From Psammoneis japonica (taxonomy: Eukaryota), in contig QPGO01000073.1 of NCBI GenBank assembly GCA_008632985.1, forward strand, positions 310,001 to 374,000: DNA of 64,000 nt, written 5' to 3'. Of this stretch, positions 1 to 55,853 are shown one piece after another. The position numbers were made by a program, and so were the translations under genes. The notes beneath the pieces were generated by a model. The model made no database searches, was not told where the DNA came from, and saw only the letters and a list, made by a program, of their open reading frames with translations. Numbering within the stretch: position 1 is the first letter of the stretch; the number at the start of each line of letters is the position of its first letter.

Positions 1-1855
1 AAGAGTGCAGCTCTGACACCCTCACTGAGGAGAAATGCCAATTGAAAAATTGACTCACAGCAAATCTGATGAATGACTGTTGTGTGCAGAGGAGTCGTGC
101 GCATCACTGGATGTCAGGAAGCCCAGACAAAAGGCCAAAGTGGCACACACTGGTCCACCAGCAGTCATTGCCTGCATGACACTTCTCCAGAAAAAGAGAA
201 AAATGAGCCTTTGTGTGTTCTGCTCAACAGCGGAACATTGTCGACCACAATTTTGCAGAAGTTTGTGTGAAAATTGAGAATGAAGAAATCTGCTGCCAAA
301 ACTTGGGAAACCAAGGGTGGGCTCTTCACAACTGACAGCTGCTGTTCAACTCAGTTCTCATTGCCTGAATTTGACAAGCATGAAAAGAATGAAGCCACTG
401 TGCATGTGGACATCAGCGCTGCTTCTTCATGTTGCTGTGATGTGGTCATGGGACATGACTTGATGTCCAGTCTTGGAATTGTCCTGGACTTTGTGAGTGA
501 AGAAATTGAATGGGAAGATGCCATGACCACACCCATGAAGAACCCAATGCCATTTTGGATGCCAAAGTGTTCGCACTGATGGCCAGTCACATTGAAGAAT
601 CTCATGCTGTGAAAAGTCTTGATGACAGGATTGACAAAATCCTTGCAGCGACTGTCATGCTGCCAACCTCAATGATGCAATGGCTGCTGCAACTCAGCCA
701 ACTCCAGTGGAGCAGAAACAACTGAACTTCCTCCTAAAAAGATTGGAGCCCTTTTTTGTGGTTCTCCAGGCAAATGGACAGGGAAACCAGCGCATCTCAA
801 GGTGAAGCTGGGTGCATGTCTGCATCACATGATGTCATTTCCCGTCCACAAGCCTTGGAGGCAACCACTTGCCAGGAGGTTGTGAGACCATGCAAGCCAA
901 AAGTGCTAAGAAAAATGACCATTTGAGTGGGCAGCTCCAACCTTTGTTCAACCCAAAAAATGGCCAAGTTTGGTTTCCACCCAACTTCCCTGAACTGAAC
1001 AGTGGTCAATGCATGCACTGCATCCTCTGCCAGATGTTCAGGACATGCATCAGAAGCCAGAAGGTTTCAGGTGTGCAAACTCACTTGATTTAAACATGGG
1101 ACACCATCATGTCAAGTTGGTGCCATTTGCACAGCACTTGCACAATTGTCATGTTGTGGGGCAAACATGAACATTGCAGACCACCCATGGACATTTGTGG
1201 AGCTCCAGACATCTTTCAGGGGGCACATGAGTGAGCTGATGGCAGGTCCAGAGTTTGTCAGGATGCGTGTTGACACCACATGCCATGCACTGAAAAAGGT
1301 GACTTCAAAAACCACCTCTCAACACAGATGATCTTCATGTCGCTCAAACAAGCTGGTGTCAAGCCACCAGAAGTTGACTGCTTGGGCTTTCACATCACCT
1401 GAAATGGCGTTGAGCCAATGCTTGAGAAAGTGGAGCAGATTTGCTCCATTGCAACTCCTGCAACTTGCAAGGAATTGCAGTGTTTCATTGGTGTGTCGTC
1501 AATTGCTTTTGGGGCATGTGGCCTGGACGGTCTCATGTGCTGCCCCTTGGCCAGACTTGGATGAGCACAGAACAAAAAGCCTTCAAAATGTGAAGTGCAC
1601 TGTGTCAAAATGTGTGCTGTTGTCATGCCCAAATTTCAACAAACCCTTTAAGACACACACGCTGATGCAAGCAGTGCTCAATTGGGGGTGGTTGTGACAC
1701 AAAACAACTGACCCATTGCCTTCTGCAGTTGCAAGTTAAATGCACCAGTGCAGATGCACTGCACTGCAACAGAAAAAGAACTTCTGTCCATGGTTGAAAC
1801 ACTTGAGGAATTCCAAAACATCCTGTTTGACGCGTTCCAGCCCTGGCAGGTGGGA
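1..1855 (+). mobile_element. Degenerate Ty3/Gypsy LTR-retrotransposon pol fragment (protease-RT-RNase H), hypermutated
   Basis: Protease-like VLLNSGTLST (LLDSG), WETKGGLFTT and CDVVMGHDLMSSLGIVLDF (YD..GRDL). RT motif SLDLNMGHHH (LDLNMGYYH) at ~1081. RNase H motifs PNFNKPF, PIAFCSCKLN (PIAFYSRKLN) and EKELLSMVETLEEFQNILF. Many frameshifts and stops. Confidence 0.9.
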
Positions 1856-2051
1856 GCTCGTAGTGCTGACGTGTGACACAAATAATTTTTGTCATCCGTC
1901 GTATGTTTCGCACGTGCATTTCTACGTGTGACATTAAAAAAAAATTGTCCAGACTCGCTGTTTTGCGAAGCCCCAGACGTTTTACATGACGAATTTATAG
2001 AAACAACAATGCGCCACAGTTACATTCTTCAATGTCTGAAGAATGTAACTG

Positions 2052-5000
2052 GCTGCTCAAGGCTGTCCCCTCAGTCCTGCCTTTTCCTGCCTTGTTTTGG
2101 CTCACGCATTCCACCCCATCAACGATGAATTGTGTCATTGACTTCCTCCCCATTCCAAATCCGCCACCTCCTTGTGCATCGACAATGCTCACATCTTCCT
2201 TCCTTTCTCCCAGCTCCCTTGGTTCCTCAAATGACTTTCTGCTTGCGGCCCCCAATTTGGTGTCAAGCTCAACGCCTCCAAGACCCAAATCCTCACATCC
2301 ATCACCGGCTCCTCTCCCATCAACCGCCTCCCACCCACCAATGCTGCCGCACTCTCCAAAGCCCTGGCCTTCCTAAATCCTCATGACAACCCCCACATCA
2401 CACCCGAAATCACCACCGGCACCCACTTCCTCAGTCAACCCATCGGCTTGCCCACTTTTGCCCTCGATTTCCTTCACGACAAGGCCACCTCCTTTGCCAC
2501 CAACCTTCGCTGTCTCACCGTCCACCTCACTGACAAACAAACACAAAGCACGCTCTTCCGCAAGTGCTCCATCCCCTCCATCACCCACCTGCTGTCCAGC
2601 AACGCATGTTGCAACCTCATGCACTCCGACAACCTTCCACCCCCTTTTCAATGGACATCCTCCTTTTCACCGACAAAATCATCGGCCACTCCCTGTGCTT
2701 CCTCACCTGCCTCACCCAACACACCAACCCGTTCCCATCTGCCACCAAACTCATTGCCACCCCACCCATCTCCCTGGGTGGCATCGGATGCCGAGATGTC
2801 TCCACTGTCTCCATCCCTGCTCTAATCACCTCCCTCATCAGATCCATCCGCCATGACAGAAATCAAAGAAGAGCTGGATTTCGGCAGCCAACCTTCACGA
2901 TGAACAAGAAAATGGTGAACAGCAGCAGCGATTAAACCAGCAGCACAAATGCCAATGGATCACTCCATTCCTCGCTCGGGGAATGGAAATCTGTCAGTGA
3001 CAATGGTGCATTCTGGTGCGAATTCCAAAGTGGGCTTGGGTTCGAGTCAACACCAACCGCGTGTCTTGGCCGTCTGGGTGTCTGTGCATCTGGGCGTGCC
3101 ATCGTGGGCACAAGACCAGGCACCTCCACCTGGCCAGACTGAAAACTGTTCCTGACCCTGGAACACATGTCCCCATTGTTCACAGGGGCACCTGCAATGG
3201 TCTCTGAGCGGAGACTCATCTGCTGTTTAGACAGCAGCAAGGTGTTGCACCAGGTCTGGGCCAGAGTTCTACTTGCCATGTCCACCTGACGTCATCAACG
3301 CTCGAATGACGGAGAAGAACAAGAGCGAGTCATTCTTGTTCAAATCCTGTCAGATTAACAATCTCGATGACACTCGCAAATGCGACGAGCTCTCATCGAG
3401 TGACGAGAACGTCGCAAGGACACAAGTGCACAAGTGGTGGCCAGCTTCGATTCTGGGGTCCATTTGACAGCGAAGCCAGAAGCCACTCAAGAGAAATGGA
3501 AGAATGACATTCACAGTGTCAGGTTGATGGGGAGTGACAGAAATCAAAGAAGAATTGGATTTTGGTGGTCAACCTTAACACCAACCGCGTGTCTTGGCCG
3601 TCTGGGTGTCTGTGCATCTGGGCGTGCCATCGTGGGCACAAGACCAGGCACCTCCACCTGGCCAGACTGAAAACTGTTCCTGACCCTGGAACACATGTCC
3701 TCATTGTTCACAGGGGCACCTGCAATGGTCTCTGAGCGGAGACTCATCTGCCATTTAGACAGCAGCAAGGTGTTGTGCTGGGTCTGGGCCAGAGTTCTGC
3801 TCACCGTGTCTACCTGACGTCATCAACGCTCGAATGATGGAGAAGAACAAGAGTGAGTCATTCTTGTTCAAATCCTGTCACGCTGCACCAAACATGGCAT
3901 TCCACTCACCGGTGGTGCCATCTTCCACCTTCCCTCAAGCTGCTCTGCCACTCTCAGTTCATGGTCCAACCCTCGCTCCACTCTCTCCCCTTTGCCGCAT
4001 CTTCCGTCACTGCGCTCCCACCCTTCTTAGACTTGATTCTTCCTCCTTCACTTCTCTCACACACGCTGTCAAACACCACAACCTGCGCGGTCTCGCACAG
4101 CGCCTTCACCTGCACCATCACAAGCACAACACTCCCCCCCAATCCTTGCTGATCCTTCCATTCAACCGGCGCTCCCATCCTTGTTGTCTCCGCTAACAAG
4201 CCCATGCCTTCACTCCCTGTCCCGCACTCCCACCTCCAACCGCCTTCCGCCTCATCTCTTCACGATCCTCCTCCTGCACAAGCTCCGTCTTCCAATTGTC
4301 CCACCCAACCTCTCCCAACACAACTGCCCATGCGGCCATGCTCACCCCAACCCATGCGTCAATCACACCTTTGCCTGCTCCAAAATGCACAAAGGCCCCT
4401 TTGCCAAATCACATCCGTGACACTGTCCACACCATCATCGAAACCGTTGGCCCTCTGTGCGGTCTCTGTCTTTCTCGCCAACAAGTCTACCTCAACCCTG
4501 CTGGACTCCTGCCCGACCACCCTCTCAAACGCCCTGCCAACATCAGTGTCCAACTCACTCCGGGCTCTGCACCACCAAATGCCCCATCCACCCATCAATT
4601 CTCAGCCATCGATGTCACCGTGCCGCCAGCTCCCCCGCCTCCTGCACCTGGTTTGCCTGTCCCTGAAAACCCACTGAACAAAGCTCACCTCAGCAGCACT
4701 CGGGACAAGCTCCTTGGCCATTCTACATCCTCTGCTCATGGCTCCGACGTCATTGATGCCATCAACCAAGTGGGCCTCTTCCTCCTCCCTTTTGCCTTCT
4801 GCCACCTCGGAGGCATTGGATGTCACTTCCACATCTTCTTCTTTGGTGCCTCCACCACCACCTCCTCCTCCATCCCACCCCTTCCTCCCAAACTGCCCTG
4901 GTCAAGCCCATCCTCTTTATCCAATTTGCAAGCATCTTTCTCCGCCTTCACCAACTCACTTCTGGCTCCTTCCAACCTCCTCTCTCGCCCAATCCAATGC

Positions 5001-5297
5001 GGCCTGGAAACAACTTTCACCGGACCACTTCGGCTCCTCTTGTCATGCTGCAACACCCCCACTCTGGGCCTCCCAAATCCTCAGTCTCAATTTTGGCTTT
5101 GCTCTCTCCAGCTACCTTTCCACATGTCAAGCTTTTCTCCTCCGTCATCACACCATCACCAACTCCTCCTCACAACCGTCTGTCCGTACCCTCGGCCAAC
5201 CCTTCTTTCTCTCCATCCCCCAGCGCGCTCCGCGCGCCTCTCCCACCACCTATTTCCCCAGCCCAACACCTACCAACCCCATAGACACCATAAACAA
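2052..5297 (+). mobile_element. 5'-truncated non-LTR retrotransposon with RT, Zn-knuckle and restriction-like endonuclease (CRE/R2-like), interrupted by an LTR mini-element
   Basis: AQGCPLSPAFSCLVL (QGxPLSP) at ~2055. CIDN at 2175-2186 in place of YxDD. GVKLNASKTQIL and FLSQPIG. C-terminal CPCG..NHTFAC..NHIRD and RPANI..AIDVTV (PD..D RLE motif). Strongly C-rich strand. Ends are approximate. Confidence 0.85.
2854..3880 (+). mobile_element. Non-autonomous LTR mini-element (TRIM-like): LTR1 2854-3352, 182-bp internal region, LTR2 3535-3880
   Basis: Both repeats start TGACAGAAATCAAAGAAGA and end CAAATCCTGTCA (TGACAG...CTGTCA inverted termini). Purine tract GATGGGGAG lies directly before LTR2. 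The 5-bp flanks CGCCA / CGCTG are a mutated TSD. LTR2 lacks ~150 bp present in LTR1. Confidence 0.85.
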
Positions 5298-5376
5298 GCC
5301 TCAAGTCACGGGTTGAACTTCGAAAAGAATCGAGCTCGTGTTCTGCGACGAAGGTGCCTTGACCCACAAGAAGACA

Positions 5377-8300
5377 ATGAATGGACATCGGCGAGCGAGC
5401 CTCGGGCGTCTCGATTTTTCGGTCGACCGTCGGCTGTGAGGAAGAGCAGGGGAAGTGAATCAACTTCGGGGTATCTTTGACCGAATATGCGAACCCGAAG
5501 CACCCGTTCAAGTGTGCATGGTACACGGCTTGTCTGGAACGGGCAAGACGAGGCTCTGTAAGGAATTGACAAAGCACGTTCCGATATTTTTGGAAGGAAA
5601 ATTCGATCAATACGTCGACTTTTCATCGCCGTATTCGGCCATCGTTCAGGCCCTTGATGGGCTCGGCAAAGCTTTGCTGCTCCGAGAAGAGGACGATAAA
5701 GACGTGGAAGATTTTCGAAATGCTCTTTCTCTTGAAGGAAAAGTCCTCACCCGGTTGATCCCCAGCTTTGCTCAGCTCGTGCTCAATGAGGACTTGTGTA
5801 AGTCTTCGTCGGGAAACCTCAACATGGCCTCCGAACGCCTTGCTGTCGCCTTGCGGGCCTTCTTGCGCACCTTCTGCACGCAATCACGTCCATTGGTTCT
5901 GTTTATTGATGATGTACAATGGGGTGATCTTAACTCATTGCAGCTGCTGTCAGCTGCGGTTGCAGATCAAGAAACATATCATCTTTTGCTGCTGATGGGC
6001 TACCGAGATGAGGAGTCGAGCAGGATAGACTCGTTTCTTTCGTCGCTACCGAGTTCGGTTCACAATGTTCCTGTTAAGAACTTGAACACTGAAGCTTTAA
6101 ACGATATGGTGGCGGAGATCGTGTCTCGAGATCCCGACGACACAAAGGAACTGGCTGATCTCATCCACCAAAAGACGTTTGGCAACCCATTCTACGCTAT
6201 TCAGTTTCTGGAAGGTCTACAATGCGACAAACTGCTCACGTTTGATATAATGTCTGTGCGATGGAACTGGAAGATGGAAGAGATACGTTCCCAAACAGTT
6301 GTATCCGAGAATGTTGCCGACTATGTGACAAGAAGAATTATAGAATTGGACTATAAAGTCCAGCAGGTCTTACAGCTGGCCGCTTGTTTGGGCTTTCTCG
6401 TGGACCTACAGCTACTGCGAGATTTGCACGACTCATCATCCGAGTTCTATCCCGAGAATCAAACACCTGACGAATCACAAAAGGAGAATGAAACGGCGAC
6501 GTTTGACTCTTCTATGTCCGTCGCACAAGAAGAGAATCTCGTTGAGACTACGGATTTCCAGTGCAGGTTTGCCCACGATCGGATACAGCAGTGCGCGTAT
6601 GAGCTCATCCCAGCCGGCGGACCCCGTGAGCGGCTACACTTTGCAATCGGGTCACACATTTCTCAGCTTGGTCAGGATCGGTTTGTCTTTTTGGCAGCAG
6701 ATCAGCTCAATCGCGGTTCAACGTGTATCAAGAGTGATGCAGACCGACTCGCACTCATTCAATTGAACATTGACGCAAGCAAAGCTGCCCAGAAGAGGGC
6801 TGGCGTCGTTCTGGTGGCACAGTTTCTCTCCCGAGCTGTAGATCTGGTTAAGAGTTCTGACTGGGACAGATCGTACGACCTTGTTCTGGACCTGTACTGT
6901 AGTCTTGCCGAGGTCGAGTCGACTCGGGGAAATTTTGACGCAAGCAACGATTTGGTTAACACTGTACTGAAAAGGTCAAAGTGCGATAACGACACAGTCC
7001 GGGTATTGTCAGCTCGGGCGAAGGCACATTTTTCGCGCCTAGATTGTCAAGCAGCTATCAGAGACTCACGAACGGCGTTGCGTCTTCTCGGTGTTCGCGT
7101 GCCACCGTCGAACTCCCTTTTGCTCTATGTGGAGCTGAAGAAGACGAAACGGCTTTTAGGAAGATTCTCAGATAATGATCTCCTCGAGCTGCCGCCAATG
7201 AGAGATGTAGGCAAGGAAAAGGCTGTGATGATCTGTCTCGATTGTGCTGTTTACGCCTGGAGCAATGACGATCCGATCACGTACGTGATGTTCTGTCTTG
7301 GAATGATGAAACTGTCTCTCCTCTATGGAAAGAGCGACGCAACTCCACAGGCGTTTGGTGCTTATGCTGAAGTGCTTGCTTTCATGGGCGAGAAATCGCA
7401 AGCCTTCCGGTTTTCGCAGCTGGCCTTGAATTCCATTGCTTCTCGCAAGGCCATTCCTCCTACATATGTGTCTGCTTATTGCTTCGTCAATCACGTGAAG
7501 CTACCTTGTGCTCTGAGCATCGAGCCCATGCTCACCGCGTATAGAATTGGAATCGAAACTGGGGACATGCTGTTTGGGTGTATCTGTTTGGCTTTCTACA
7601 GTGACTTCTATAAGTTCTGTGGACTGCCCTTGGCACGTTTGCGTCGGATTTGCGTCGCTTTGCGGGTCAGCTCAAGCTTTGCCGTCAGACACTCATGCTT
7701 AGTATGATGTTGCCAAACTACCAGCTAGCGTTGAATCTGTCTGGGCAGTCGGATGATAGTGTTGAGATTTCATGGGACGTGATCAAGGTGCACGGATTCA
7801 TCAGTGAGAATGACGCGGATTTTGAGAACAATAATGCTACTATCGTTATTGATTACAACCAGATGTTTAATGCCTATATTCTCGGGGAACTGGAAATTGC
7901 TCGAGAGGCTCTCGATCGGAGTCTTGAGCCGTAAAATCGGACAAAGGAGGTTCGAGGGGAATCACTTTCTCAATTATATGTTTAACTTCCTCGATGGTTT
8001 TGTTGGACGTGAACTCTACGCTGTAACAAAGAAGCGACGATATCAGAAGGTTGCCGAGCAAGCTCTGCGATGGCTGACAAAGACAAATACGGTCGACACT
8101 TTTCCGCTTCGGCGTCTTTGGAAGCCCAGAAGGTGTCATTGTGCCGTTCTGTTGATGGAGAGACTGCTAGACAAGGTTACAACGAAGCCATTGCTCTTTT
8201 GGCACGCGCGGGTTTCACTCATTACTGTGCAATTGCGAACGAGCAGATTGGAAAAGTCATGCTAGTTTTGTTGGACCACGAATGGGCGGAGCACTACCTC

Positions 8301-18249: not shown

Positions 18250-20650
18250 AAGCTGAAATTGACACACTCTAGAGATGTGCTGAGTCTCCTAGCCCATGGG
18301 TTGGCCTGTCATTGCTGCTGCAGTCATGCAGTGCAAGTTGAGTCTTCTGCTCTCACTTGTTTTGTGCTTGCGGCCGACACGTCGGCTCTGCGCTGGATGG
18401 ACGAAGAACAACATCTCGTGTGCAAAGTTTGGCTTGGATGTCGTGCAGCAAAACACCCCAGAGGACTGATGTCAGCACCCTCAGCACTGTCAAACTGGGT
18501 CAGTTTCTTCACTCACTTGCTGTCACTCATGTGTTGTCAGATTCCATGCAAGCCTTGCCATTGGCCTTCTTCAACACACTCGACATGCTGCTGTGGCAGC
18601 AGCCCTTGACCTTGCGGGGGAGGAGACCTCAGCATGACAGCCAGAATGCTGCAACATTCTCAGTGCATGTGCTTTGCCAATGTGAGTGACAAGCCAGCAC
18701 TCCCAAGCCTTGCTGATTTGGGTGTCAGCCCAATTTTTGATGCTCTTCAGCGATGACATTTGAGAAGTCATTTTTGCTGTGGCTCGGCACCCGTGTGCTG
18801 TGAGACACACAGACTGAGTCATTTCAGATCAGAGCAGCAATGGGCACCAGTCACTTCCCTTGTGGCGCTGTGTGAGCATGTGCCTGAGATCATGCAGCTT
18901 CAAGGACACCTGTCAAGGGGCTCTCTCTGCCCCCTTTGCACAGTGTGACACTGCCAAGGGCTGCCAGCACAGTGGCCAGGCAAGGTGTCAGCATGCAGAT
19001 TTTTCTTTGCAGAGCTTCTCAGCAAACATGTCTTGTTTGCAGCTGGGCATTGCAACAAGCTCTGGCGCACTGGAAATCATGTCCAAGCTCCTCCTTCCTC
19101 TGCCAAAGCCAAACTTTGGATGGAAGGCCCAGGGATGAAAAAACTGTGCCACACAGCATGACCAACATTGTTGTCCACATGTCCACAAAAACTTCAAGCT
19201 GCTTTTTTGCCATGTTCTGGGTGCCACTCCTTCTGGAGAGCTTGAGCTTTGCCAGCATCTCACAAAAATGCTTCAGACTGCACCTGTTGGGTGGTTCCTG
19301 TGGACAAAACCACAGTGTGGGCTGCACATGCAACCAAACATTTTTTGTTGGTGGCTTTCAAATCACGCTGAATTTTGTCATTGTGGTGCTGGCTCAGAGC
19401 AATGTTCAGCCCGCCGACTGGTTTTTTTCCTTCCCCAACCATTTGACCCAAACCAGTGCCGCCTGCCCAAAACAAAAAGACAAGCAGCAGCATGCCACAC
19501 ACACATTGACTGGAGAGCTTGAGCTTTGTCAGCATCTCATGAAACTGCACCAGATTTTGCACTTGTGAGGTGTTCCTGTGGATAAGATTGCAGCGTGGGC
19601 TGCACACACAACCAACCATTGTTGTGTTGGTGTCTTTCAAACAATGCGCTGCTGATTCTTGTGAGTGTGGTGCTGGCTCAGAGCACCGTTCAGCCCGCTG
19701 ACCATTTTTTTTTCTTTGGCAGCCATTTCACCCACACCAGTGCCCACCCACAACAAAACAACAAGCAGCAGCATGTCACACACATTGACTGGAGTTTTTG
19801 CCCCCCCCCTTCCGTCATCACAGAGTCAGGCTGCTCATGTCCACTTTGGCGGCATTTTGCAGCGGGGGAAGGGTGGTGTGCAAAATCTCAGCTGAGTGCC
19901 ACCCACCAGGCTGAAGAGAAAGAATGTCATGCCAAGATGCACTTGCTGCTAGAGACTGGCAGCACAGCATCCCAGAGCAGTGGCACAAGTGTTTGCAGAT
20001 GACTCTCTGTGGCCAGGACACCCAACATGATGCGGAGCTCTGCTGGCCAAGGGTGCAAGAACAAGCATGCACCAGGCACTGGTCAGCCTGCAGATGCCAT
20101 CACTCCAAAGTCACTGGGGTTGGTTTTGCTCTTTGAGGCCAAGTCACTCAAGCATGCTTCCAGCTGGTGGCTGCTTCATGAGCCAGAGCCAGCCAACGAA
20201 ACAAAGATGCACAGCTCGCGCGAGTTGTGGTTGCGCAGCTCTTTGGCTTGTGCCAGATCAAACAACTCTGTCAGAGACAGTGGCACAGTCCTGGCTCATG
20301 CTTTCCCAGCCAGTCATCTCCCCCTGTTTCTTTGCAAAGCCAGCGACAATGTTGGAGCAGGGGGCTCTCTGTTCTTGCAGCTTGCAAGCGCAGCTCTGGT
20401 CTCCTCTGCCCCCTGAATCCCAGCCAGCATTTTGACACTTTGCACACAGCCATTTGAAAAAAGCCTTTGCATCAACAACAATGCAAAAGCACTTGAGGAT
20501 CTTTGTGGACCTGTGTGATGCCAAGTGTCAACTGCCAAACGTGTGTGCACACGGGGCGTCAGCTGTTGGCTCTCCAGACACTCCCAGACAGCTCTGCTCC
20601 ACAACAAGAAGATGAGGTGCTGATTGTGCTTTGCAGTTTCTCAGGGAATC
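18250..20650. mobile_element. TA-depleted degenerate repeat/transposon relic with an internal ~280-bp tandem duplication
   Basis: Near-total TA loss and Tyr-free spurious ORFs in six frames. Duplicated unit ~19236-19512 / ~19513-19790. Weak hAT-like hints only; family unassigned. Confidence 0.6.
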
Positions 20651-21064
20651 TTCTTTTCCAATTTATGTTCAAGAAGGACATGGCATTTACCAAATGCATG
20701 AATCGAACCAAGCATTGCAATGTCAAATTGCTGGTGTGAGAGATGCCTCCACTTCCGCAAATCTCAGCCGCGACCAAGGCGTGACCACTCAGTCTGCGTC
20801 CGCGATCATCTCAATTTTTTTGGCCTTTGCACCTCCTTGGGAGTGGCCTTTGCACGACTGGCTTCCGCTCGGCTCAACGCTCGCCATGATGGCCGCACGA
20901 CGAACGACGAGAACATTCTCTCACTCGTGTTGCCGTCACTTCTTGTCACTCTCGCCGCCGTCACGATTCTTACAGTAGGCCTCAAAGCGCTATGCGTACG
21001 CTACACGTTCTTATTTTGTCTTCCCCATCTTTCCACAGTCTGCTCACACAATATTTTAAGAAGG

Positions 21065-26020: not shown

Positions 26021-27725
26021 TTTCATCTCGATTTTTCTCGGTAGCATCTAAAAGAACGTGTGATTGGTGGTCGTCCCCGACACAATTCCTCCAGTGCGTT
26101 GTTGCGGACATTGGATGCAGGATCGGTTCACTGCCGACAAGTCAGGGGTAGGAAACAAGAGCTTCCAGAAGTTTTCCCTCTACAGTACTCTTGAATTCTG
26201 CCGATTGATTTTGCGGCGGCAGTAGTGTTCGCCCTGCGTTACCCACATTATTCCAATGATCCAGTTGAGGATGGTTCCTCGATTTGCTCCTCCCTTTGAA
26301 ACACGGGGCTAAATGACTTAAGGCGCTATTGCCGTATGCTTGTTTACACATTGAACATGACTTGGCTGAACTCATTTTGTTTGTCCCTTAACCCATCTGG
26401 AGCGCGTGTTCCTCGCTGATGCTGTTGCGTCATCACCACTTTGACGATTCTGCAGCAGAGCACACTGGCGCGGGAAAACATTGCGCTTGCGGCCTGCGGC
26501 ACAACGCAACAAGGCCAGCAGTAACCGCTGCTCATGAGCTTTGTAACATTCGCAACAGCATGTGCCAAGAAGCCTGTAACACCTGTTTTTACATGTCCGG
26601 GACTCGTTGTTGATGTGTGTTGCACCACCACAAAACGCATGATGATGGATTCTGTCACCAACTGCAAGTGCTGCGGCACCTCATTTTTTTCCATTTTGCC
26701 TTTGATGATGCGTGCTGCCAGTGGCCAGCAGTTGACAGAAAGATGCGCAGCTTCACCAGCTTGGTGTGGTGGTTCTTTTGCAAGCACTCCAACTGTGTGC
26801 AATGGAAGCATGAAAAAACAGGGCCAGCTGCTTCAAAAAGGAGTTGTCAAAAAAAGCTCACAAAAGTGCATCAGAGGAGGAAATTTTGCAAAAAAGCATG
26901 GGAGGGTTGTGCAGCCAGCATCAGAGCTGTGCAACTGCTTGGCCAGCTTGTGCAAACAAAGAGCTGTGCAGCTGCAATCCCAAAAAACATTTTTCTTGCT
27001 TGTTTCTGGCATTGCAGGTCTTTCATGAACTGAAACAAGTGCCCCAAAAATCATGCCAACAACAATGCTGACAGCTCCTTGCATGTGCCTCTGTGCCACC
27101 AGCTGACACCACCAGGCAGATGGCTCTTGTGCAAGCAAGCCAAGGCAGCACAGAGCTGGCACCATGAAGTGATTGCTGCAAATGGCCACCCATCTGACAG
27201 TGCCTTTTTGCCACAAATGTTTTCTCACCTGCTGAAGGGCACACTGCACCCCAGTGCTCTTGACTTTGTTTGGTGTGTGTGAGTGTCCATCCAGTTTGCT
27301 TGTGATGCTGGGTCCTGCGAAGAGTGAACAAGAGAGAGAGAAAGCACCACTTTGCAGTGGTGCCACAAGAAAGAGCTCTTGTGTTTTTGTTGCAGCACAG
27401 CTGCACCAGCTTGCCACCAATGCATGCCACCACCTGCTGAACAAAGAAAGAAGATCTAGCCTGTGGGTCAAGCAGCAGATCATGTGGGTCAAAACAGGAG
27501 TCCCAAAAATCACAGCACAAGAAGAAGCAGTGGCCCATTGCACACTTGTTGAGTCCCGAGTGTTTGATGCAGGCGGGACCGACCAATCACTTCATGCCGG
27601 CGACCGGCAACCATCACATCGCACGGCGAACAAAAACAAAAAAGGTCAACAATGGCAATGACGAAGCCAAGCTGAAAGCATCCCATCCACTGAACAGATG
27701 CAGACACACATGCTTGCAATGAACA

Positions 27726-28556
27726 ATGATGGGACGCTTCAAGATTCTGTGTGTCTTTAATCCAGAAGATGCCTTTGGCTTTGTTTGCACCCATGACAAT
27801 GAGCAAGGATGTCCTGAGTTCATCGCTCTCAACACACCACGAAACAAGGCCAGCCGCATTGGCAGTGTCATGCACTTTTTGTCCAAACACATGATTGAAC
27901 ATGGCAATGCAGTTAGAAGCAATGGGTTGGATTTTCTAACCAAGCTGGTCAAAGGCAACCGCAAGGCAGAGCTCATGCGCACACATGCAACCATGACAAA
28001 CAAGAATGCGCAGCTGTTTGAGCTCCTTCCTTGGTTTGAGTTTGACCGGCTGGAGGACTGGGAAAGTCACGAACCTGCACCAAAAGGCCACGATGAGTTT
28101 GTGTGTTCCATGTCAGAAGTTTGGCAGACAAAAGGCAGCTTCATTTTGCACATTGATGGGGACAAATCGAGTTGTGCCTTGGTGAATTTGAAGCATGTTG
28201 ATTCAGCTGTTGCCTTGCAACATGTTGATGACTGGACAGTTGACTGGGACATGAATCTCATGTTGGAGCAGCAAGCATTTGTTTGCACCCATTCTCGACA
28301 CTTTGGCAAACTTGCCAAAGTTTGTTTTCGCGAGAAGAACATTTGTGCCTGTTGCAGCCTGATTGACAATGAAAAGTTGAGCAAGTGCAGGCAGTGCAAG
28401 CAAACTTTGCATTGTTGCCACAAACACCAGGCAGCCAACTGGCCTGCCCACAAAGGCAAGTGCAAACAGATGAAAAGCATGCGCGACAACAAGAACAAAC
28501 ATGGAGGCCGTCGATCCAACAACAAACAGGGTGACAAAAGCAAAATGAACAAATGA
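27726..28556 (+). pseudogene. MYND zinc-finger gene, hypermutated but still open
   Basis: CACC...KLSKCRQCKQTLHCCHKHQAANWPAHKGKC matches MYND (CxxC..CxxC..YC..Q..W..H..C) with Tyr positions replaced. The 276-aa ORF has no Tyr. Confidence 0.8.
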
Positions 28557-30502
28557 TTCTGATGAAAGTGGGGGTGGACAGAAGATTGCACAGTTCTGAC
28601 AAACAGACATTCCATGGGACCATTGTTGTGTCTCATTCAAATCAGAGAAGAACAGAGACCCTTCTCCAGATTCAAAAGTTGTGGGATCACTCTCCAAAAT
28701 GTGAGCAGAGCTGTGAGTTTTTTTCATTTCTTGGACACTTGCAATCCATCACTTCTGTTGGGATTTGTCATCATTGGGTCTTGGCAACAAACCCAATGGC
28801 AGAATTGATGTTTTCATTTCATTTGGTTTGCAAAAGTCTGGACCAACTGCAGGCATTTTGCTCATCGCGCACGAGGTTCCAATGTTTCAAGGAACATTCT
28901 GGTCTGATGAGCTTGTCACATTTTCTTGTGAGTTTCATGCGGATGCCCTCAAAACCCTGTGTTGTTGACAAGGGGATCACTCTGTGGGATCATTCCACTT
29001 CAATGCAGTCTCAACCAAGCCATCTGCATTTTGTGGGAGTGTTCGTTCTTCACAATGCAGCAGTCTCTTGCCATTCAGTCCGACCAGAAGAGATCTTGTC
29101 AAGACAAATCACACGGACACAAATGTTGACTCTAGAGAAAGATGCTGGCTCACAGGTGTGCATCAGTTTTCAACAATGTTGTTCTTGTGCGCCAACCTCC
29201 ACAGATGTTTCTCTGTCATTGCGCATCTCACACAAGCAGAGGACAACCAATTGCGGGAATGTGATGCTGCCAAGCTCTGCCACCATCATCATCCTGAATG
29301 AATTGCGCATCAAGCTGATGATGAAGATTGTGCTTGGCATGAATGTCAAAACCTGGAGCATGATCTGCAATGGGGAATGATGAGGTCTCCAACATGCAAA
29401 GCAAACAATGCAATGCTGAAGACTGGGCAGCAAGACTGGAGTGATGAAGGACGCGGCAGGGCCAAGGAAAAGAACACATCAATGAGATGGAGAAATTGAG
29501 GGCACCTGCAGCCATGGGTGTTTTGGCTCAATGATGCACCCGGTGGATCTTTTGCACCCAAGCATTGTCACAATGCTCATGTGACTTGTTTCTGTGAACA
29601 AACTTGAAGCCAACTGCAGCACTTCATGCACGCACATGACCCACCTTCATTTTTCTTCATGTTTCCCAGATTTGTGCAGCCCGTTGGTCTACGGCGTTTT
29701 CAGTGTGTGTTTTGCATGCATGATTTTCTGCACACTTCACAACAGTGCACCCTCTCCCCAAAGTTTGAAAAATGAGAGTGTGCACAGCCATGGCGGTGAA
29801 AGACTTTACCCCATTGGCCGATGACAGCAGCTCAATGCATGGTGAAGCCTGCCATCCTTCTGGTTGGTCAAGATGGGGTTTCGTTTGGGTGCAGCTTGAA
29901 TTTTGTGATCGCAAGTGTGCTGTCACGAATCCGCCGCATCCAGAATGCTGAGCTCTGGTGTGTTGTTGTGTGTTGTGTGCACGCACATCACAAACTTGCT
30001 TTTCTGCAGTGTTGGCATGATCGCGCACATCAGAGTTTTGCATCCAGAGTCATCACAAGTTGCCATAAATTGCACTGTTCAAACAAGGCATGTACAAAAA
30101 GAGGTTCATTGGTTTTTGATGCATTCGCCAACAACACATCCGTCTTCTCCAATTTCTGTGTCCAGATCCAGAAAGACTGCAGGCGGTGCTTGTTCCTGCA
30201 GCTCTCAGAATCACCATGTGAAAAGTTCTTTGCCACACATGAAACTCTTCAAAAAAGGCATGCACAAAAAGAGCTTCATTTGTTTTTGATGTGTTCACTT
30301 GTGTTGCATCCGTCTTCTCCAATTTCTACACCCAGATCCAGAAAGACTGCAGAGGTGGAGAGTGGGGAGGCAACCCATTTGAGGTTGCCTGAGTTGTTGG
30401 GCTCATTTTAAAAGGCTTCCCAAGTCTCTCCGCTGTTTGTGGTCAAGAGCAGGGGGGTCGACTACAACAACCTCAGCAGCTGCCAATTCCATGTCGATGG
30501 GT

Positions 30503-31000
30503 CGGGAACCAGCAGCAGAAGCTCCCAAATCGGCGGCGGTGGATGCACCTGCAAGTCCACATTGCGGTTTCAATTGGTTGCTGCTGTTGTCCTGCACACT
30601 CTCACAAAGCATTTTACATTTGTTTGCAATGAACAAGGTGGATCAGAGCAATGTCACTTCACCTGATCCAGAATCAGCTTTGCGGGGTCAGGAACCGGCA
30701 GCAGAAGCAACCGAATCTGCCACGGCGGATGCACCAGCAAGTCTGCGTTGCGGTTTTAATTGGTTGCTGTTGTCATCTCATGCACTCTCACAAAGTGTTT
30801 TGCACTTCTTTGCAGTGAATGAGGTGGATCAGAGCAGCGCCACTTCACCTGGTCCAGAATCAGCTTTGCGGGGTCAGGAACCGGCGGCAGAAGTGACCAA
30901 ATCGGTGGCAGCGGATGCACCTGCAAGTCTGCGTTGCGGCTTCAATTGGTTGCTGTTGTTGTCCCATGCACTCTCACAAAGTGTTTTTCACTTCTTTGCA
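30503..31000. repeat. Three tandem copies of a ~185-bp unit
   Basis: GGAACC(A/G)GC(A/G)GCAGAAG...GGATGCACC(T/A)GCAAGTC...AATTGGTTGCTG..CACTCTCACAAAG recurs at ~30503, ~30690 and ~30876. Confidence 0.9.
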
Positions 31001-33062
31001 ATGATTTGCCATTGTGAACAGAGTGTCACTCCTCGTTTGAAGGCGTTGCATTTGGATTGCTTGCCATGTCTCAGCATCAAGATTGTGCTCTCAACTGCAT
31101 GGCAGTGCAAGTGGAGTTCAAAGAGGTCCAAGCTTGTGCTCATGAAGGCAGTGGTGCACTCCACTTTTGCTGCAGTGAGCTCTAGCTCCGCCATTTTGTG
31201 CATCAGCTTTGCACCTTTCTTCTCTTGGAATTCAGTCGTTGCCTCTTTGAATTCATTGACAAGCCTTTGTTTCCGTCTGCGTCATTTAAATTAAGTGCAA
31301 ACAACAAAACAGAACGTTTGCAATGCAGGTGATTTTAAATTGCAGGTTTTGCAGGAATGGAGGGTGGGCACTCTCACAGGGAAAATGGTTGGCTGTTTCA
31401 CAGTGAATGGTGTTGCCTCGTGGGACAGTTGCGGGCTCCACAGCAATGAAGTTTGTCTTTCACAGTTGACAAATTGTCACCACGTACACAACCAATGAGG
31501 TTTGAAACCATGAAATTTTTAACTGTGACAGATTAAAAAATTCACTGTGAGAAAGTTGGTCTGATTGCCACATTGCATGCTCTGATGGAAGCCAGCATCA
31601 AGCAGCACAGAATGACCAGCTGCACCCCTTGTGAGAACAAGGGCCATGTGACAAAACCTGGCAGCATGGTTGTTGTCTCCAGTGCCACCCACATGGGCTG
31701 GATTGCACAACCATGAACAGACAAAGATGGCCTCTTGAGCTGGCAACTTCCCTTCTTGGTTTCCCACGTTCTTGGCTGCATTCTGATGCTGCTTTTTTGA
31801 CAGACGAGAGTGGCAGGAACCCCTCCTTGCACCTTTGAACTGCCAGAACAGAAGGAAGGGCAACCCATGGTGCCAGTGCGGATGTGTTGTTTGCACTGCA
31901 AAACAACACTGGACAACGCCAAAAGCAAAAACAAATTGTGAACAAAATTTTGCTGCAGTGACCCAACTGAAAAAAGGAAAAAATTGAAGCAAACAAACTT
32001 GTGCATTGAACAGGACATTGACACAATTGGTGCTGCAGGTTGAAATTGTTGCAGTCGTTGAAAAACAGCTTTGCTGTGGGGAAAAAAGAGGTGGCAATCA
32101 AAAGGCAAAAAAAACTGGCATCACACCCAAAAAGAGCAGGTGAATTTGCACAGGGCATCCATGTGGAGAACACATGGGAAGGATGCCTGCTGGGAGAAAT
32201 TGGGAGAATGTGTCTGTTTCACGCAGAAGAAGACAAATTAAATCCGCCAGAATTGTTGGTTGATTTTGACCATGCTGCAGGAGTCATGCAGGCCCCACTG
32301 GAGTTGTGGAAACAATGCAGGTTTGTCACATTAAATGAGGGTTGCCCTGCATTTGAGGAATGGATGCCCAATGGATCAATGCAAAGCACAAGCAGTGCAG
32401 CAACTGAAGCTTTGCCCATTTTCATGTTTGTGCAGCTCAACATGACAACCCAATGCTCCACAGAAAAGGAGGCACTTCAAAGACATGTGTGTGCTGTGCC
32501 TGTTGCCATCAAATTGCCACAATGCTGGGCTGCCATGCTGCTCTGCAGGAGGTGGCCAACCCAACAGCATGGCTGTTGAGTTGTGCAAAAATGTCATGGC
32601 TCCTTTTGAGAGTGCAACCCAGCACTGTCTGACTGAACAGGCAGGAGTGACCTCTCTCTGCACGCACACACACACCCTCTGGTGGGATGATCAACAAGAA
32701 GAACCTGCTCTGGGCAAAAACAGATTTGGAGATCTTCTTGTGCAAAGAGGCAGTGGTGAGATTAAACAAGAAGTGAACATGGCACCCGAAGCTTCCAAAC
32801 AATCGTCAGCTTGCAAAACAACACAAACATCGAATCGCAGGAACAAGCAGCAAATGTTCTTGAGCTCACCTTGAGGTGACAGAGCGAAAATCAATTTTTC
32901 TGACTGGACACTGGGGCCTGCCTGATTGTGGTGGGAGTCCATGTGGGCTGCAGCAGTGAGAATGAGGTGTCGTGTGTGCACAGCGTTCTGTCGTCGTCGA
33001 CGGGTCGTCATGATGTCGTCATCCGTTCGTTCAAGCGAGTCCCGAATGGACCAAACCATTTT

Positions 33063-39887: not shown

Positions 39888-40716
39888 ACGTTTGGTACTG
39901 AATCGCATCACTATTATTTGGACGAGGCCGTCAATGACCCTGTTGCTCTCTTTCACTTGTAAGATGTATTGTAACAAGCAGCGCTCCTCCGACAACCTCT
40001 TTTTTCTCGACAAATTCTGTTTGATCTCAACGAAAACGAATCGTAGATCGTGAGCACGCCTTTTTAAATATTAGCATAACTCCACTTCAATAACGGGAGC
40101 TACTTTCCGATACATGCTGTATGGACACCCCCAAAAGGACATTGACTTAGTTGGGAAAACATCCTATTCGTTTCGAGCCTGAGCATCCTGAAAAATTTTA
40201 AGAAGTGCTTCTTGGATCCTGAATTCAAGTAAAACACAGGAGCAAAAGTGTTATCGACATTGTAAGCGGTCGGATCTTTCAAATGGGAAGCTTATAATGC
40301 GTAGCTAAACGAGCTCTATCGAACAAAACAAGTTTCGATCTTCAGCGCAATGACTGGTTTGGATTCTACTGTAGCTGCGCTGCTCATTTCATAAAGTTGC
40401 ATCATTGTAGGCGCCATTTAGCATTGCTAGAGTCCTTAAAACCCCAGTTTGTCGTGGATGAGGTGCTTTCCTTGGAGGAATAGAGTGAGGAATAAGAGTG
40501 GCAGTGAATGAAACACCATTTATAATTGAGCTTAAGTCTAGTGTAGAAGTACCGTGCTCTATTACAGACTGTTCTGCTTTGAAATCTAATGTTTTTCCAT
40601 GAGAAACAAACCAATGCCACTCGAAGAACAACGTGGTATCTTTCTGTAGTGGAAAGAAAAATAAACCATCGGAAGGCAGGAACAAATCAGTAGGACCTTT
40701 TGCGTTTTCTTGGATT

Positions 40717-41472
40717 CTACTCTTGTTGTAAGTAGCCAAACAAGTCGGGTTTCGTTTGAAGCAGAGAAAATAGCAAACTTAGCCTACCCGGGGCTTTCTT
40801 GTGTCCAACTGTTGCAAACGCTTGTGCCCATAAACCAGGATGGGCGTTGTCGGCAGCCAACAACCGTTTCGCATGAGCTTCCATCAAGAACAACCTTACG
40901 GGTTCACAGGCTCTTCCGATTGCACAATTAATCGGCATGCGCCCCTTGTTGTCACTAGCATTCAAATTTGCGCCTTGTTCAATCAGCACACGTGCCACAT
41001 TTACATGCATGCCGATGCATGCGTTGTGCAGCGGGGTTCGTCCATCTCTGTTCACTGCGTTCAAATCAGCACCATTTTGTATGAAGAACTCTACAAGAGA
41101 TTCGTTCCCTACCATGGCAGCTTTATGCAGAGGCGTGGAGCCCCAGTCATCTCTAGAATCCACTTCAGCCCCGTGCGATAACAGCAATTGTGCTTTGGAT
41201 GCGGGTCTGCGCACGGGAAGGGAGCAACAAGCAATTTTATGCAGCGGCGTAAAACCCCACTGTGTCGAAACCTGATTCACATCAGCACCGCATTCCAGAA
41301 TTAGCTCTAACATGGCGTCTTCTCGGACTCTGAGAGCTAAAAATATTGGAGATTCTCGCAAGCCACGTCCTGACAGCGTTGCGTTCACGTCCTGTCCTGC
41401 ATCAAGGATGCTTCGAGCTTGATCCACCTCTCCCCCTTGAATGGCATTAAAAAAAGCATCAGAACTAGCCAT
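40717..41472 (-). CDS. Ankyrin-repeat protein, copy 1
   Basis: MASSDAFF... with repeats GFTPLH, GSTPLHKAA and GRTPLHNAC; open frame. Confidence 0.92.
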   Translation of the reverse strand: MASSDAFFNAIQGGEVDQARSILDAGQDVNATLSGRGLRESPIFLALRVREDAMLELILECGADVNQVSTQWGFTPLHKIACCSLPVRRPASKAQLLLSHGAEVDSRDDWGSTPLHKAAMVGNESLVEFFIQNGADLNAVNRDGRTPLHNACIGMHVNVARVLIEQGANLNASDNKGRMPINCAIGRACEPVRLFLMEAHAKRLLAADNAHPGLWAQAFATVGHKKAPGRLSLLFSLLQTKPDLFGYLQQE

Positions 41473-41959
41473 GATTGTCAGTTGATTCCAATTCTCACAA
41501 TCCGTTCTGTCGCAATGAGAACAGAGCCAGACCACAGCAATGCATGACTGGGTGACTAAAAAGCTCTCATTGCAGGCGGCAGTAGAAGGTGGAAGATGTC
41601 GGAACGGGCGGGGGGACACATGTGCAGGGTATTTCGCGCCTTCCAACGAACGTCTGTCCAACTTGCATCTACAACATGTACAGACTCATGAGCCGACATG
41701 CTGGCGTCAGATTATGAGAGGGGCCGATCGTTTCTTTATCCTTTGCCCCCGGATCCAAACTGGAAAACCAGATGCGCGATCTTTTTGCCGCGACGCGCAC
41801 GGCGGCGACACGGGGAAACAATAAAACGGGATTGTAGTGCCGGTAGAAGCATGTCGTGGGTTTCGCTCTCTAGGGCCCTAGGGCTAGAGTGCTCTAGCTG
41901 GCTGCTGGTAGAGTAGAGAGCAGCTCTGCCAGCTAGCTGCTGCAGTCTACCGGCATGAT

Positions 41960-43700
41960 GCGACATGCCAGAATGCCTTGTGGAGCATGCAGTGGCGCGT
42001 CGCATGTCTGAGACACGCACACCAACTTTCGCGTGCTGTGTGCAGCGTGGCGTCTTGGGCTCACGTGTTTTTCTGGTGCTGGCACACGGCAATTAAATTC
42101 CCCAACAAACAATGCTGCAGTGAGTGATGACAGTGCCTCATGCAACAACACAACAAAAACACAAAAGACAACACCACATTGCTGCCTGGCATGCTGTGGC
42201 TGTTCTTTTTGACGACTCGCCATGTCTTCCCAGTCATCAATGGCCACGTTCTTTCACCAAAAAAGCATTGCTCCAAAGCAATCACAGCCACTGCCACCAT
42301 CTTCTGCAACTCCATTGGATGTGACACCAGCGCTGAAAGTGGAGAAAGAGCTCACCCTGCTCAAGCATGACCAAGAAAACTGAGATGGAGTGCGACAAGT
42401 TGACTCGCATGACAAAGGCGTGCTGATCAATTTCTTCTTTTTCCTTGTGGTGTTGCCATGGCAATGGACTGTGTGCTCATCTGGAGCATGCCTGCCATGC
42501 CAGTTTGAAGTTGTTCGAGGGCCGGGACTCACAGAGCCACTTGAACAAGCTCTTTTGTCATGACAGATTTTCCACTTGATCTTGACAAAAATGATCTCAG
42601 ATCGCAAGCATGCCATTTTAAACATCTTGCTGTTGCTGCTTTCCAATGTTTGTGGCATCCCTGACTCTGGAGAATGATGTCCTCAGGGGAAAGCACATGA
42701 CCAAATCGACCTCACACCTGTTGTTTTCCAAGATTCATGAAATGTGATGGCTGACCCACCAGTCTTGGCTTGTGCTTTGAAGCAAGGAAAAAACAGCTCA
42801 AAAACAAAAAGCATTTTTGTGGGCAAATGTGGTGCACACTGATGACAAGCCCCACTCAATTTCTGAGCATCATTTGCACTGCAGCGGTGGTGTGCTGCTG
42901 GTGCAACACACAGCCAAAACGAGCAGCGGGCATGCAAGTCAGTCAAAGCAATGCAAAGGCATGGTTGCCTTGCTCCTGTTGCATTTTCAAGCATCTTTTT
43001 CCTTGTGTTGTGCTGAGCTGCCCATGATGGTGTGTGTCTGGCAGGTGGCAGCTCTCTGCAAAAAGAAAGAAAGAGGGGAGGCAAGAAGTGAGCTGCAGAA
43101 ATGACCTGTGGCATGGCTGGCTGCAGAAGACAGTGCATTTGCCTGCTGCTGCTGCTCTGTTGTGTGCTGCCAACAGGGGATTTGAATTGCAGCAGAGTCG
43201 GCCATGACAGTTTTGCATTTTTGGTGTGCCATGATTCGTGCAGTGTGCTGTTTGGGCGAGACTTGAGACGTGCAGCAGAGAGAGCCCAACTCTCTGTGGC
43301 AAACAAGAGATTTCATCTTTGTGCAATTTTCTGCTGCAGCTGGCACCAACCAGAACTAGGTGATGTTTTGGTTGATTCTGTGATTGAGTTCTGGCAGAAC
43401 ACCTGCATCTGTCTGGTGTGTTTTGCTGCCCACTGGCAGCCCAGTGACCCACTCAGCACAAAAGAGCCTGCCAGAGCAGCGCTGGCTCCTGACCCCAACT
43501 TTTTCAACTGACACACCTTGAGTGCTGCAACTTTCAAATCTTTGAAAAACTCAAATCACTCACTCAAGACATGTGCCATGTCACCCACCAACAGGTCACC
43601 CGACAGCAGGTCACTTGCCAGTGGGCATCTGACTTTGTGTCTCCTGCTGTGTGCAGAGCAGCAAGCGCCCACCAAAGACCGAGTGGTGGGTTTTTAAAAG
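41960..43700. mobile_element. TA-depleted degenerate repeat block
   Basis: Abrupt loss of TA and most CG; spurious C/H-rich ORFs; no family assigned. Confidence 0.55.
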
Positions 43701-44799: not shown

Positions 44800-44915
44800 C
44801 GTGATTGCCGGTGCGCTCGAGACGGACGTTCCGGGCGCATCGAAAAGTGGTTGCACGTCAGTCTGTGTAGTCAACGAAGGCATTCATCGTGCAAACATTG
44901 GAGAAAAAGCAAAAA
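44800..44915 (+). pseudogene. Duplicated fragment of the HAD gene 3' exon (39657-39770)
   Basis: GCGCTCGAGACGGACGT..GGGCGCATCGAAAA.TGGTTGCACGTC..GTAGTCAACGA.GGCATTCAT is shared with 39669-39743. Confidence 0.85.
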
Positions 44916-45656
44916 CAAGTTGGGTTTCGCTTGAAGCAGAGAAAATAGCAAACTTAGACTACCCGGGGTTTTCTTGTGTCCTACCGTTGCAAACGCTTGT
45001 GCCCATAAACAAGGATGGGCGTCGTCAACAGCCAACAACCGTCTCGCATGTGCTTCCATCAAGAGAAACCTCGCGGATTCGTGGGCCTCTCCGATTGTAT
45101 AGTGCATCGGAATGCGCCCCGATCTGTCACTAGCGTTCAAATTTGCGCCTCGTTCAATCAGCAAGCGTTCGACATTTTCATTGTTGCCGATGCATGCGTT
45201 GTGCAGCGGGGTCTGTCCCGCTCTGTCCACTGCGTTCAAATCAGCACCATTTCGTATTAAGACCTCGACAACAGCGTCGTTCCCATTCAAGGCAGCTTTG
45301 TGCAGAGGCGTGGAGCCGCTGTTGTCTCTAGCATCCACTTCAGCACCATGCGACAGCAGCAATTGTGCTTTCGATGCGGGGTTACGAGCGGGAATGGAGC
45401 AACAAGCAATTTTGTGCAGCGGCGTAAAACCCGAATATGTCGAAACCTGGTTCACATTAGCACCGTATTCCAGGAGGAGCTCTAACATGTCGTCTTCTCG
45501 GACTCTAAGAGCTAAAAAGATTGGAGTTTTTAGAAACCCACCCAACCCCATTCGCGTTGCGTTCACGTCCTGTCCTGCTTCAAGGTTGCTTCGAACTCGA
45601 TCCACCTCTCCCCGTTGAACGGCATTAAAAAAATGATCATAACTGCTTCTAGCCAT
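44871..45656 (-). CDS. Ankyrin-repeat protein, copy 2 (C-terminus from antisense HAD fragment)
   Basis: Intact 261-aa ORF, closely similar to copy 1. Confidence 0.92.
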   Translation of the reverse strand: MARSSYDHFFNAVQRGEVDRVRSNLEAGQDVNATRMGLGGFLKTPIFLALRVREDDMLELLLEYGANVNQVSTYSGFTPLHKIACCSIPARNPASKAQLLLSHGAEVDARDNSGSTPLHKAALNGNDAVVEVLIRNGADLNAVDRAGQTPLHNACIGNNENVERLLIERGANLNASDRSGRIPMHYTIGEAHESARFLLMEAHARRLLAVDDAHPCLWAQAFATVGHKKTPGSLSLLFSLLQAKPNLFLLFLQCLHDECLR

Positions 45657-55531: not shown

Positions 55532-55853
55532 GATGGTGTCAGTTGATTCTGTTTCTCACAATCCGTTCTGTTGTGATGATGAGGACAGAGCAAACCGTTG
55601 TGCCGTCGCAGCAATAATAGCGAAATAATAGTTGCGCTATGAACGTGGAACGCGGGGGTGGGTTTCAGCGTGGATTTCGCGCCGCCGTCGACCGAACGTC
55701 TATCTCACCAGCTTCTACGGACTCGTGTTTGGATTTGCTGGCGTCAGATTATGGGAGGGGCCGATGGATTCCCCCCCCCCTTCCTCACCAAACGCGAGGT
55801 TTTGCGCCGTGACGAGCGACGACAACACATAACAATACCGCATCTCACTTACC

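Follow-up and report, generated by a model that had tools for sequence, protein, structure and literature searches.

A reciprocally altered target-site duplication in a TpA-depleted transposon block of Psammoneis japonica

A stretch of 64,000 nucleotides from Psammoneis japonica (contig QPGO01000073.1, positions 310,001 to 374,000; hereafter the window) was analyzed around a 1,027-bp non-coding long terminal repeat (LTR) element at 2854–3880, which is nested in a dead non-LTR retrotransposon, here also called the long interspersed nuclear element (LINE). The flanks of this mini-element differ in a reciprocal manner, CGCCA on the left and CGCTG on the right. Judged from the sequence, the pair is probably one instance of a hypermutation of TpA to CpA or TpG that affected whole blocks of the window, the direction of change being taken from paralogues. 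The duplicated 5-mer was very probably CGCTA, with a Tyr (TAC) codon of the host element, and not CGCCG.

The target-site duplication and its ancestral codon

The two copies of the target-site duplication (TSD) were located on the forward strand at 2849–2853 (CGCCA) and 3881–3885 (CGCTG). At the presumed TpA, the left copy carried a T to C change and the right copy an A to G change. The two copies now match at 3/5 positions, and among lengths of 2–11 only a length of 10 equals that proportion (6/10); the flank match alone was weak. The 5-bp duplication was accepted because of the spacing in empty-site contigs of a public run (X1), and not because of the 3/5 match. Four such contigs, found among the 15 listed of 88 joints, confirmed it. 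Three of them joined the left flank to position 3886, with a spacing that removed exactly the element and 5 bp, and the fourth, which joined 2848 to 3882 through a single intervening letter, gave the same spacing. These contigs represent other copies of the host element, and X1 is possibly the sample behind the window assembly and hence not independent of the genome. The reciprocal flanks described in the initial annotation were thus present in the sequence, and their origin as a duplication was borne out by the empty-site contigs. The reading frame across the empty site was RSIR-x-TKHGIPL.

Only TAC (Tyr) and CGC (Arg) could have become CAC as well as TGC at the codon x by a single transition each. 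This codon was CAC in three of the four empty-site copies and TGC in the other. Counting the TSD pair as well, the site was changed in 6/6 copies, while the CG one codon upstream was kept in 5/6 (Fisher p 0.015).

Homologues of the host element were collected for comparison of this codon. A phmmer search with 61 aa of the hypermutated LINE against 1.84 billion representatives gave 0 hits, word searches with LINE pieces gave 0/8000 and 0/142 candidates, an Atlas search with such pieces gave no usable match, and Pfam assigned no family to them. A degenerate DNA motif was modelled on GGxGxRD-14-RxIR, with the codon after R-x-I-R left free. This motif matched 61 metagenome loci and 0 loci in viral contigs. 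Nine of the metagenome loci were true homologues by tblastn, and the other 52 were dropped as chance matches. A profile from the nine returned five proteins, four of which were kept and one of which (P0005) was dropped for its 9% coverage, giving 13 homologues in all. They were distant, with local protein alignments about 23–57% identical and no intact same-family copy among them.

The residue after R-x-I-R was Tyr in four of the 13 homologues, Leu in six, Ile in one, Asn in two, and Arg in none. CGCTA was favored over CGCCG because of this occurrence of Tyr (4/13) and absence of Arg (0/13). The Tyr homologues were P0001, L012, L018, and L035, the last two being 80% identical in DNA, and the motif of the Asn homologues, P0002 and P0003, was diverged. 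P0001, which gave the best local match (57% over 35 aa), contained RSIRYASQGIPH in place of the RSIR-x-TKHGIPL of the window. The proposal in the initial annotation that CGCTA restores a Tyr in the LINE frame was therefore favored, and the Arg-Arg reading, which it had expected of intact LINE relatives if the change were plain CpG decay, was seen in 0/13 of these distant homologues.

The CpG decay explanation starts from CGCCG (Arg-Arg) as the duplicated 5-mer, in which deamination of methylated C then struck the bottom strand of the left copy and the top strand of the right copy. A single change per copy accounts for both flanks, the blocks described below are depleted in CpG (observed/expected ratio, O/E, 0.29), and their paralogues show polarized changes of CG to TG or CA. 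In addition, CG methylation of diatom transposons has been established (PMC9998398). This explanation is nevertheless quite unlikely, as Arg was found in none of the homologues and the adjacent true CpG was kept in five of the six copies in which the site itself was always changed. Furthermore, the host copy retained about 60% of its CG (O/E 0.58–0.60), while TA was nearly gone (O/E 0.05–0.10). At Arg positions showing either CGN or its decay product (27 rows in all), CGN was kept at 8/11 well-supported positions and at 10/17 once weakly supported rows were counted. Tyr codons made up 1/554 codons of the LINE copy, compared with 1.3–2.4% in 9/12 homologues. The Tyr positions of the homologues were uninformative, with seven weakly supported rows, none of which was His or Cys. 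A rough likelihood ratio of TA to CG was 2.6–16 for the two TSD copies and 17–4400 for all six copies.

TpA loss across the blocks, its agent and its timing

The TA map of the window gave seven sharply bounded blocks (1–1800, 2100–5150, 18300–20700, 26600–33000, 42000–43600, 45800–54100, and 57000–58400). The TpA-depleted block around the element, one of the seven, extends over 1–5150, runs off the left end of the window, and is interrupted at about 1829–2055. Inside the blocks, 88 TA remained in 24,956 nt (O/E 0.05), compared with 1481 in 36,406 nt outside (O/E 0.57). The O/E values inside and outside were 0.29 and 1.01 for CpG, 1.73 and 1.17 for CpA, and 1.81 and 1.17 for TpG, respectively. 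Genes between the blocks were unaffected, and the blocks also contained host-type copies (ankyrin and MYND). A sequencing or assembly artefact was rejected for the TA-free blocks, as X1 contigs matched TA-free DNA with 0 other letters at 462–751 (290 bp) and 3 at 926–1588 (663 bp), with the reservation that the window may have been assembled from X1.

The direction of change was taken from an ankyrin family, with three unconverted copies outside the blocks (40349–41543, 44913–45737, and 54391–55591) and two converted copies inside (47228–47921 and 49798–50683). Where the outside copies all had TA, the two inside copies kept it at 2/8 and 0/4 positions, and the inside changes at these strictly conserved TA were CA or TG in 9/10 cases. 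The outside copies, used as controls, kept TA at 8/11, 8/9, and 8/12 positions. They are about 80–84% identical to each other and yet unconverted. These copies suggest that host-type gene duplicates were hit according to their block and not for being repeated. When all paralogue pairs were pooled, an outside TA was faced by 93 inside positions, which read CA in 33, TG in 22, TA in 9, and other letters in 29, so that CA and TG made up 55/84 changes.

The LTRs of the mini-element changed in a similar manner. The 5′ LTR (LTR1) and the 3′ LTR (LTR2) differed by 20 mismatches, counted as 15 events, in 346 aligned columns. Five events were reciprocal CA/TG pairs, two were TA against TG or CA, four were CG against TG or CA, and four were of other kinds. 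The events among TA, CG, CA, and TG (11/15) exceeded the chance proportion of 0.475 (p 0.04). The reciprocal TSD is an expected by-product and no separate phenomenon, because the loss of TA was near saturation (85–90%); five more reciprocal pairs occurred between the LTRs.

The flanking bases of the surviving TA were strongly biased (Y, pyrimidine; R, purine). Inside the blocks, 58/88 surviving TA were in the context YTAR, compared with 266/1481 outside (p 2e-21). The relative survival of TA in the blocks was 0.011 for RTAY, 0.025 for RTAR, 0.074 for YTAY, and 0.318 for YTAR, and YTAR is the sole flank class without 5′-TAY on either strand. A modest trend in the same direction was seen in the paralogues, in which the change followed the TAY target at 19/27 informative sites (p 0.026).

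These observations are consistent with the following sequence of events. A non-autonomous LTR element would have entered the TAC (Tyr) codon of the non-LTR retrotransposon and duplicated CGCTA. The whole repeat block would then have been converted at the DNA level, from TpA to TpG by a change of A to G on the same strand or to CpA by a change of A to G on the other strand, with ordinary CpG loss running alongside. The two TSD copies would have been hit independently on opposite strands, to give CGCCA and CGCTG. The putative agent would be an ADAT/TadA-like adenine deaminase that acts on the A of 5′-TA, prefers 5′-TAY, and attacks each strand separately in chromatin that is silenced and probably CG-methylated, the resulting inosine being copied as G. 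DNA editing by TadA-derived deaminases is known from base editors, and YAC is the preferred context of one engineered TadA variant (PMC13109818). We lean, with some reserve, towards such a deaminase in silenced chromatin as the agent, and a biased repair or replication pathway is the alternative to it.

Several points weigh against this account. Since the TA map served to delimit the blocks, the contrast between inside and outside is partly circular, which does not apply to the paralogue test. CpG loss was real and locally as strong as the loss of TA, as CG was kept in the inside paralogues at 9/27 and 0/11 positions, and the LTR events with a surviving CG (four) outnumbered those with a surviving TA (two). 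At the codon itself, Leu was commoner than Tyr in the distant homologues, and an intact copy of the same family with TAC was not encountered. The 6/6 changed copies may be a biased sample because 15 of 88 joints were listed and the others could read TAC or CGC. The copies may also have a common ancestry, and they are not independent. Finally, a TAY preference predicts TG at the C-TA-Y site of the TSD, yet 4/6 copies read CA, and the preference is therefore a bias and not a rule.

Given an ancestral TA, the TSD changes quite probably post-date the insertion. As the LTRs, the interior, and the host were all converted alike, the simplest interpretation is that the two copies were hit independently once the element had inserted. 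The dating after insertion in the initial annotation was, for this reason, the likeliest one, but was not proven, since editing at integration predicts the same arrangement of CA on the left and TG on the right.

The usual integrase geometry makes the original top strand the template of the right TSD copy and the original bottom strand that of the left copy, and both stay single-stranded until the gaps are repaired. If the A of TA were deaminated on these single-stranded overhangs, or if the duplex had been edited beforehand on both strands, the outcome would be CGCCA on the left and CGCTG on the right, and the predicted polarity is the polarity seen. The DNA editing by TadA-derived deaminases and the YAC preference of one variant (PMC13109818) are also in line with it. 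Editing at integration was considered very unlikely because one site has even odds by chance; half of reciprocal pairs would show this polarity. Furthermore, the LTRs, the interior, and the LINE were equally converted, so that editing of double-stranded DNA after the insertion has to be assumed in any case and is enough. On its own the one TSD contributes little, and across the genome the left/right polarity of reciprocal TSDs would separate editing at integration from later editing. If editing at integration were true, TSDs would be a genome-wide readout of the base and strand attacked by the enzyme.

A further explanation holds that the target already read CGCCA or CGCTG at the insertion and that one copy then changed twice, or that a flank was misassembled. 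Other LINE copies do carry CAC or TGC at this codon, and the matching contigs show small gaps relative to the window, i.e., some indel differences. A pre-mutated target needs two adjacent transitions away from CA and TG, which are stable end products and were kept at 37/43 and 32/34 sites, respectively, in the paralogue i1. An assembly error is at odds with the close match of the X1 contigs to the TA-free DNA at 462–751 and 926–1588, with the reservation about X1 given above. This explanation is highly improbable. Later, independent hits on the two copies remained the preferred reading.

Related mutators and the signature in metagenome homologues

The prior account of a regional mutator of TpA to TpG or CpA consists of one preprint on viral inserts in one chlorarachniophyte. 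Mettrop et al. (bioRxiv 10.64898/2026.01.13.699255) measured this hypermutation as new mutations in integrated DNA of nucleocytoplasmic large DNA viruses (NCLDV) as well as virophages of Bigelowiella natans. As described in that preprint, the genome contains clusters of windows poor in TpA and rich in CpA and TpG, RT (reverse transcriptase) and DDE domains are among the TpA-poor genes, and an ADAT2-like deaminase was proposed. The process is ongoing, at a rate raised about 1000-fold per generation, the changes in the target region being almost exclusively A:T to G:C, and it has gone nowhere near completion in the NCLDV region (Rho TpA 0.45). The words CpG and diatom are absent from its main text (10.64898/2026.01.13.699255).

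The window shares with B. natans the change of TA to TG or CA, in the same dinucleotide, on both strands, and confined to regions, with the window case read from the sequence only. Unlike in B. natans, the loss in the window was near completion (O/E 0.05), covered retrotransposons and duplicates of host genes, and had a flank bias. The spectrum of the window also differed in having two parts, the change of CG to TG or CA being strong as well (CpG O/E 0.29). In addition, the window comes from a different, probably diatom, lineage. The window would thus extend the mutator to retrotransposons and duplicated host genes, to near completion, and to another lineage. No description of TpA hypermutation in diatoms was found in the literature searched, in which subscription journals were largely uncovered.

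Repeat-induced point mutation (RIP), known from Neurospora and other ascomycetes, is set off premeiotically by homologous duplication and makes TpA from CpA and TpG through C to T changes at CpA. The process in the window is like RIP in leaving region-confined, transition-only scars in repeats, on both strands and after insertion. Unlike RIP, it acts on A:T pairs and eliminates TpA. RIP proper was rejected for its opposite direction, as TpA was depleted and CpA and TpG were enriched in the blocks (O/E 1.73 and 1.81, respectively). The three unconverted ankyrin copies do not favor simple repeat counting as the trigger, which is no test of RIP. Diatoms are described as carrying DNMT4, which is related to RID (PMC9998398).

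A similar signature was observed in the metagenome homologues of the host element. Six of the nine (L001, L002, L016, L020, L044, and L058) were poor in TpA (O/E 0.18–0.48), with RTAY nearly absent (0–0.17), and L012, L018, and L035 were not depleted (O/E 0.79–0.81). L001 (1–1898) and L044 (952–2849) were 98.6% identical, with 26 differing sites. Among their transitions, 10/21 were TA against TG or CA (chance 0.17, p 0.001, unpolarized), which has the look of the same process at an intermediate stage in a different organism. The homologue sequences suggest that the TpA mutator is not peculiar to one strain, and the signature points to a widespread genome defence linked to silencing. It is doubtful in the extreme, at about the level of editing at integration, that a TAY-preferring, strand-wise adenine deaminase is spread across microbial eukaryotes and also edits TSDs at integration with a fixed polarity. 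Because the process destroys perfect TSDs and LTR identity, LTR finders that depend on these features will miss such elements, and LTR-based ages will be inflated.

The mini-element, its host and neighboring features

All parts of the mini-element were assigned to the forward strand. LTR1 (2854–3352) is 499 bp long and retains 3 TA (O/E 0.11). The interior (3353–3534, 182 bp) was non-coding, with no recognizable protein in a six-frame translation read by eye, and Rfam gave 0 matches over 1800–5400. A purine-rich tract at 3521–3534 (11/14 purines), likely an imperfect polypurine tract, ends in GGGGAG and directly abuts LTR2 (3535–3880, 346 bp). Both LTRs start with TGACAG and end with CTGTCA, which form a 6-bp inverted terminus. 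A primer-binding site of the TGG type was not found after LTR1, where the interior begins with GATTAACA (0 tRNAs were present in the window for comparison).

A 153-bp part of LTR1 (2896–3048) is absent from LTR2. The joint 3573>2933 in the X1 contigs indicates another copy with sequence where LTR2 has this gap, and the gap is probably a later deletion because that copy fills it. Likewise, the joint 3537>2855 in X1 indicates a second copy with the junction of polypurine tract and LTR, followed by LTR1-like sequence. The summed depth in X1 was 18,500–48,300 over 3205–4005, compared with about 90–185 on a gene, and no listed contig spanned the whole interior. Loose contig ends were concentrated upstream of the same LTR position, with 11 at 3187 and 13 at 3715. 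A more abundant relative therefore has the same 3′ 165 bp of the LTR and a different 5′ part.

At the start of the LTR pair, the 42 bp (3535–3576 against 2854–2895) that adjoin the 153-bp deletion contained six differing columns, three of which were off-class, and the remaining 304 bp contained one off-class change. Three of the four off-class changes of LTR2 thus fall in its first 42 bp (p 0.006), and a chimera or error-prone repair is possible there.

The element was compared with terminal-repeat retrotransposons in miniature (TRIMs) as defined in PMC6696364. It resembled them in its size of about 1 kb, TG...CA terminal direct repeats, small non-coding interior, polypurine tract, and TSD of 5 bp, within the 4–6 bp of the definition. 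It differed in that its LTRs are not structurally equal (499 and 346 bp) and no canonical primer-binding site was seen, and the 182-bp interior may be a one-off deletion product. Thus the layout of a compact TRIM-like element nested in a LINE, as given in the initial annotation, was retained for the LTRs, the purine tract, and the interior, whereas membership among the TRIMs was unproven. It is best described as a non-autonomous LTR element that is TRIM-like for its layout only.

Diatom Ty1/copia elements (CoDi) are reported to have TG/CA termini, inverted repeats of up to 8 nt, and LTRs of 153–844 bp (PMC2806351). The TG/CA termini, the 6-nt inverted terminus, and the LTR length of the mini-element agree with these values. 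Unlike CoDi elements, it has no gag or pol left, and its lineage is not assignable because no such coding remnant exists.

The host consists of two parts on the forward strand. The 5′ part (2056–2853, left limit approximate) begins where the RT region ends, reaches as far as the GGxGxRD...RSIR motif, and is frameshifted, with O/E values of 0.05 for TA and 0.60 for CG. The 3′ part (3886–5150, right limit approximate) contains a Cys/His motif, HIRD, RPAN/D, and AIDVT, with O/E values of 0.10 and 0.58, respectively. The motifs of the 3′ part presumably correspond to a restriction-like endonuclease layout, and we take the host to be a CRE-like element of the R2 group, with an RT and a C-terminal restriction-like endonuclease. 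Among seven homologues scanned, RVT_1 was matched in four, three of them above the cut-off, and was followed by the Cys/His motif and RPAD...IDVT. The CRE-like order of RT, Cys/His motif, and restriction-like endonuclease was found for the host by alignment to these RVT_1-bearing homologues. Unlike the homologues, the window copy is 5′-truncated, frameshifted, and hypermutated.

Other features were observed in and beside the blocks. Upstream of the host, positions 1–1828 contain decayed fragments of a Gypsy-type pol (motifs by eye), in which Tyr codons read His or Cys (TA O/E 0.04, CG O/E 0.15). The interruption at about 1829–2055 is a TA-retaining insert with 10 TA, a CG O/E of 1.25, and a read depth of about 50,000. 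This insert is probably a small, young transposon, which either came in once the conversion was over or was spared by it. In another TA-free block, a MYND-finger-like frame at 27723–28556 (Pfam E 0.0007, below the cut-off) is apparently another host-type gene caught in the conversion, and three tandem units of 186 bp at 30499–31056 also lie inside a converted block. An AAA_16/TPR gene (5373–7506) adjoins the block around the element, and its frame breaks near 7700. Divergent second versions of this gene, with 54 differences in 480 bp, were present in X1 and X2 and represent either an allele or a paralogue.

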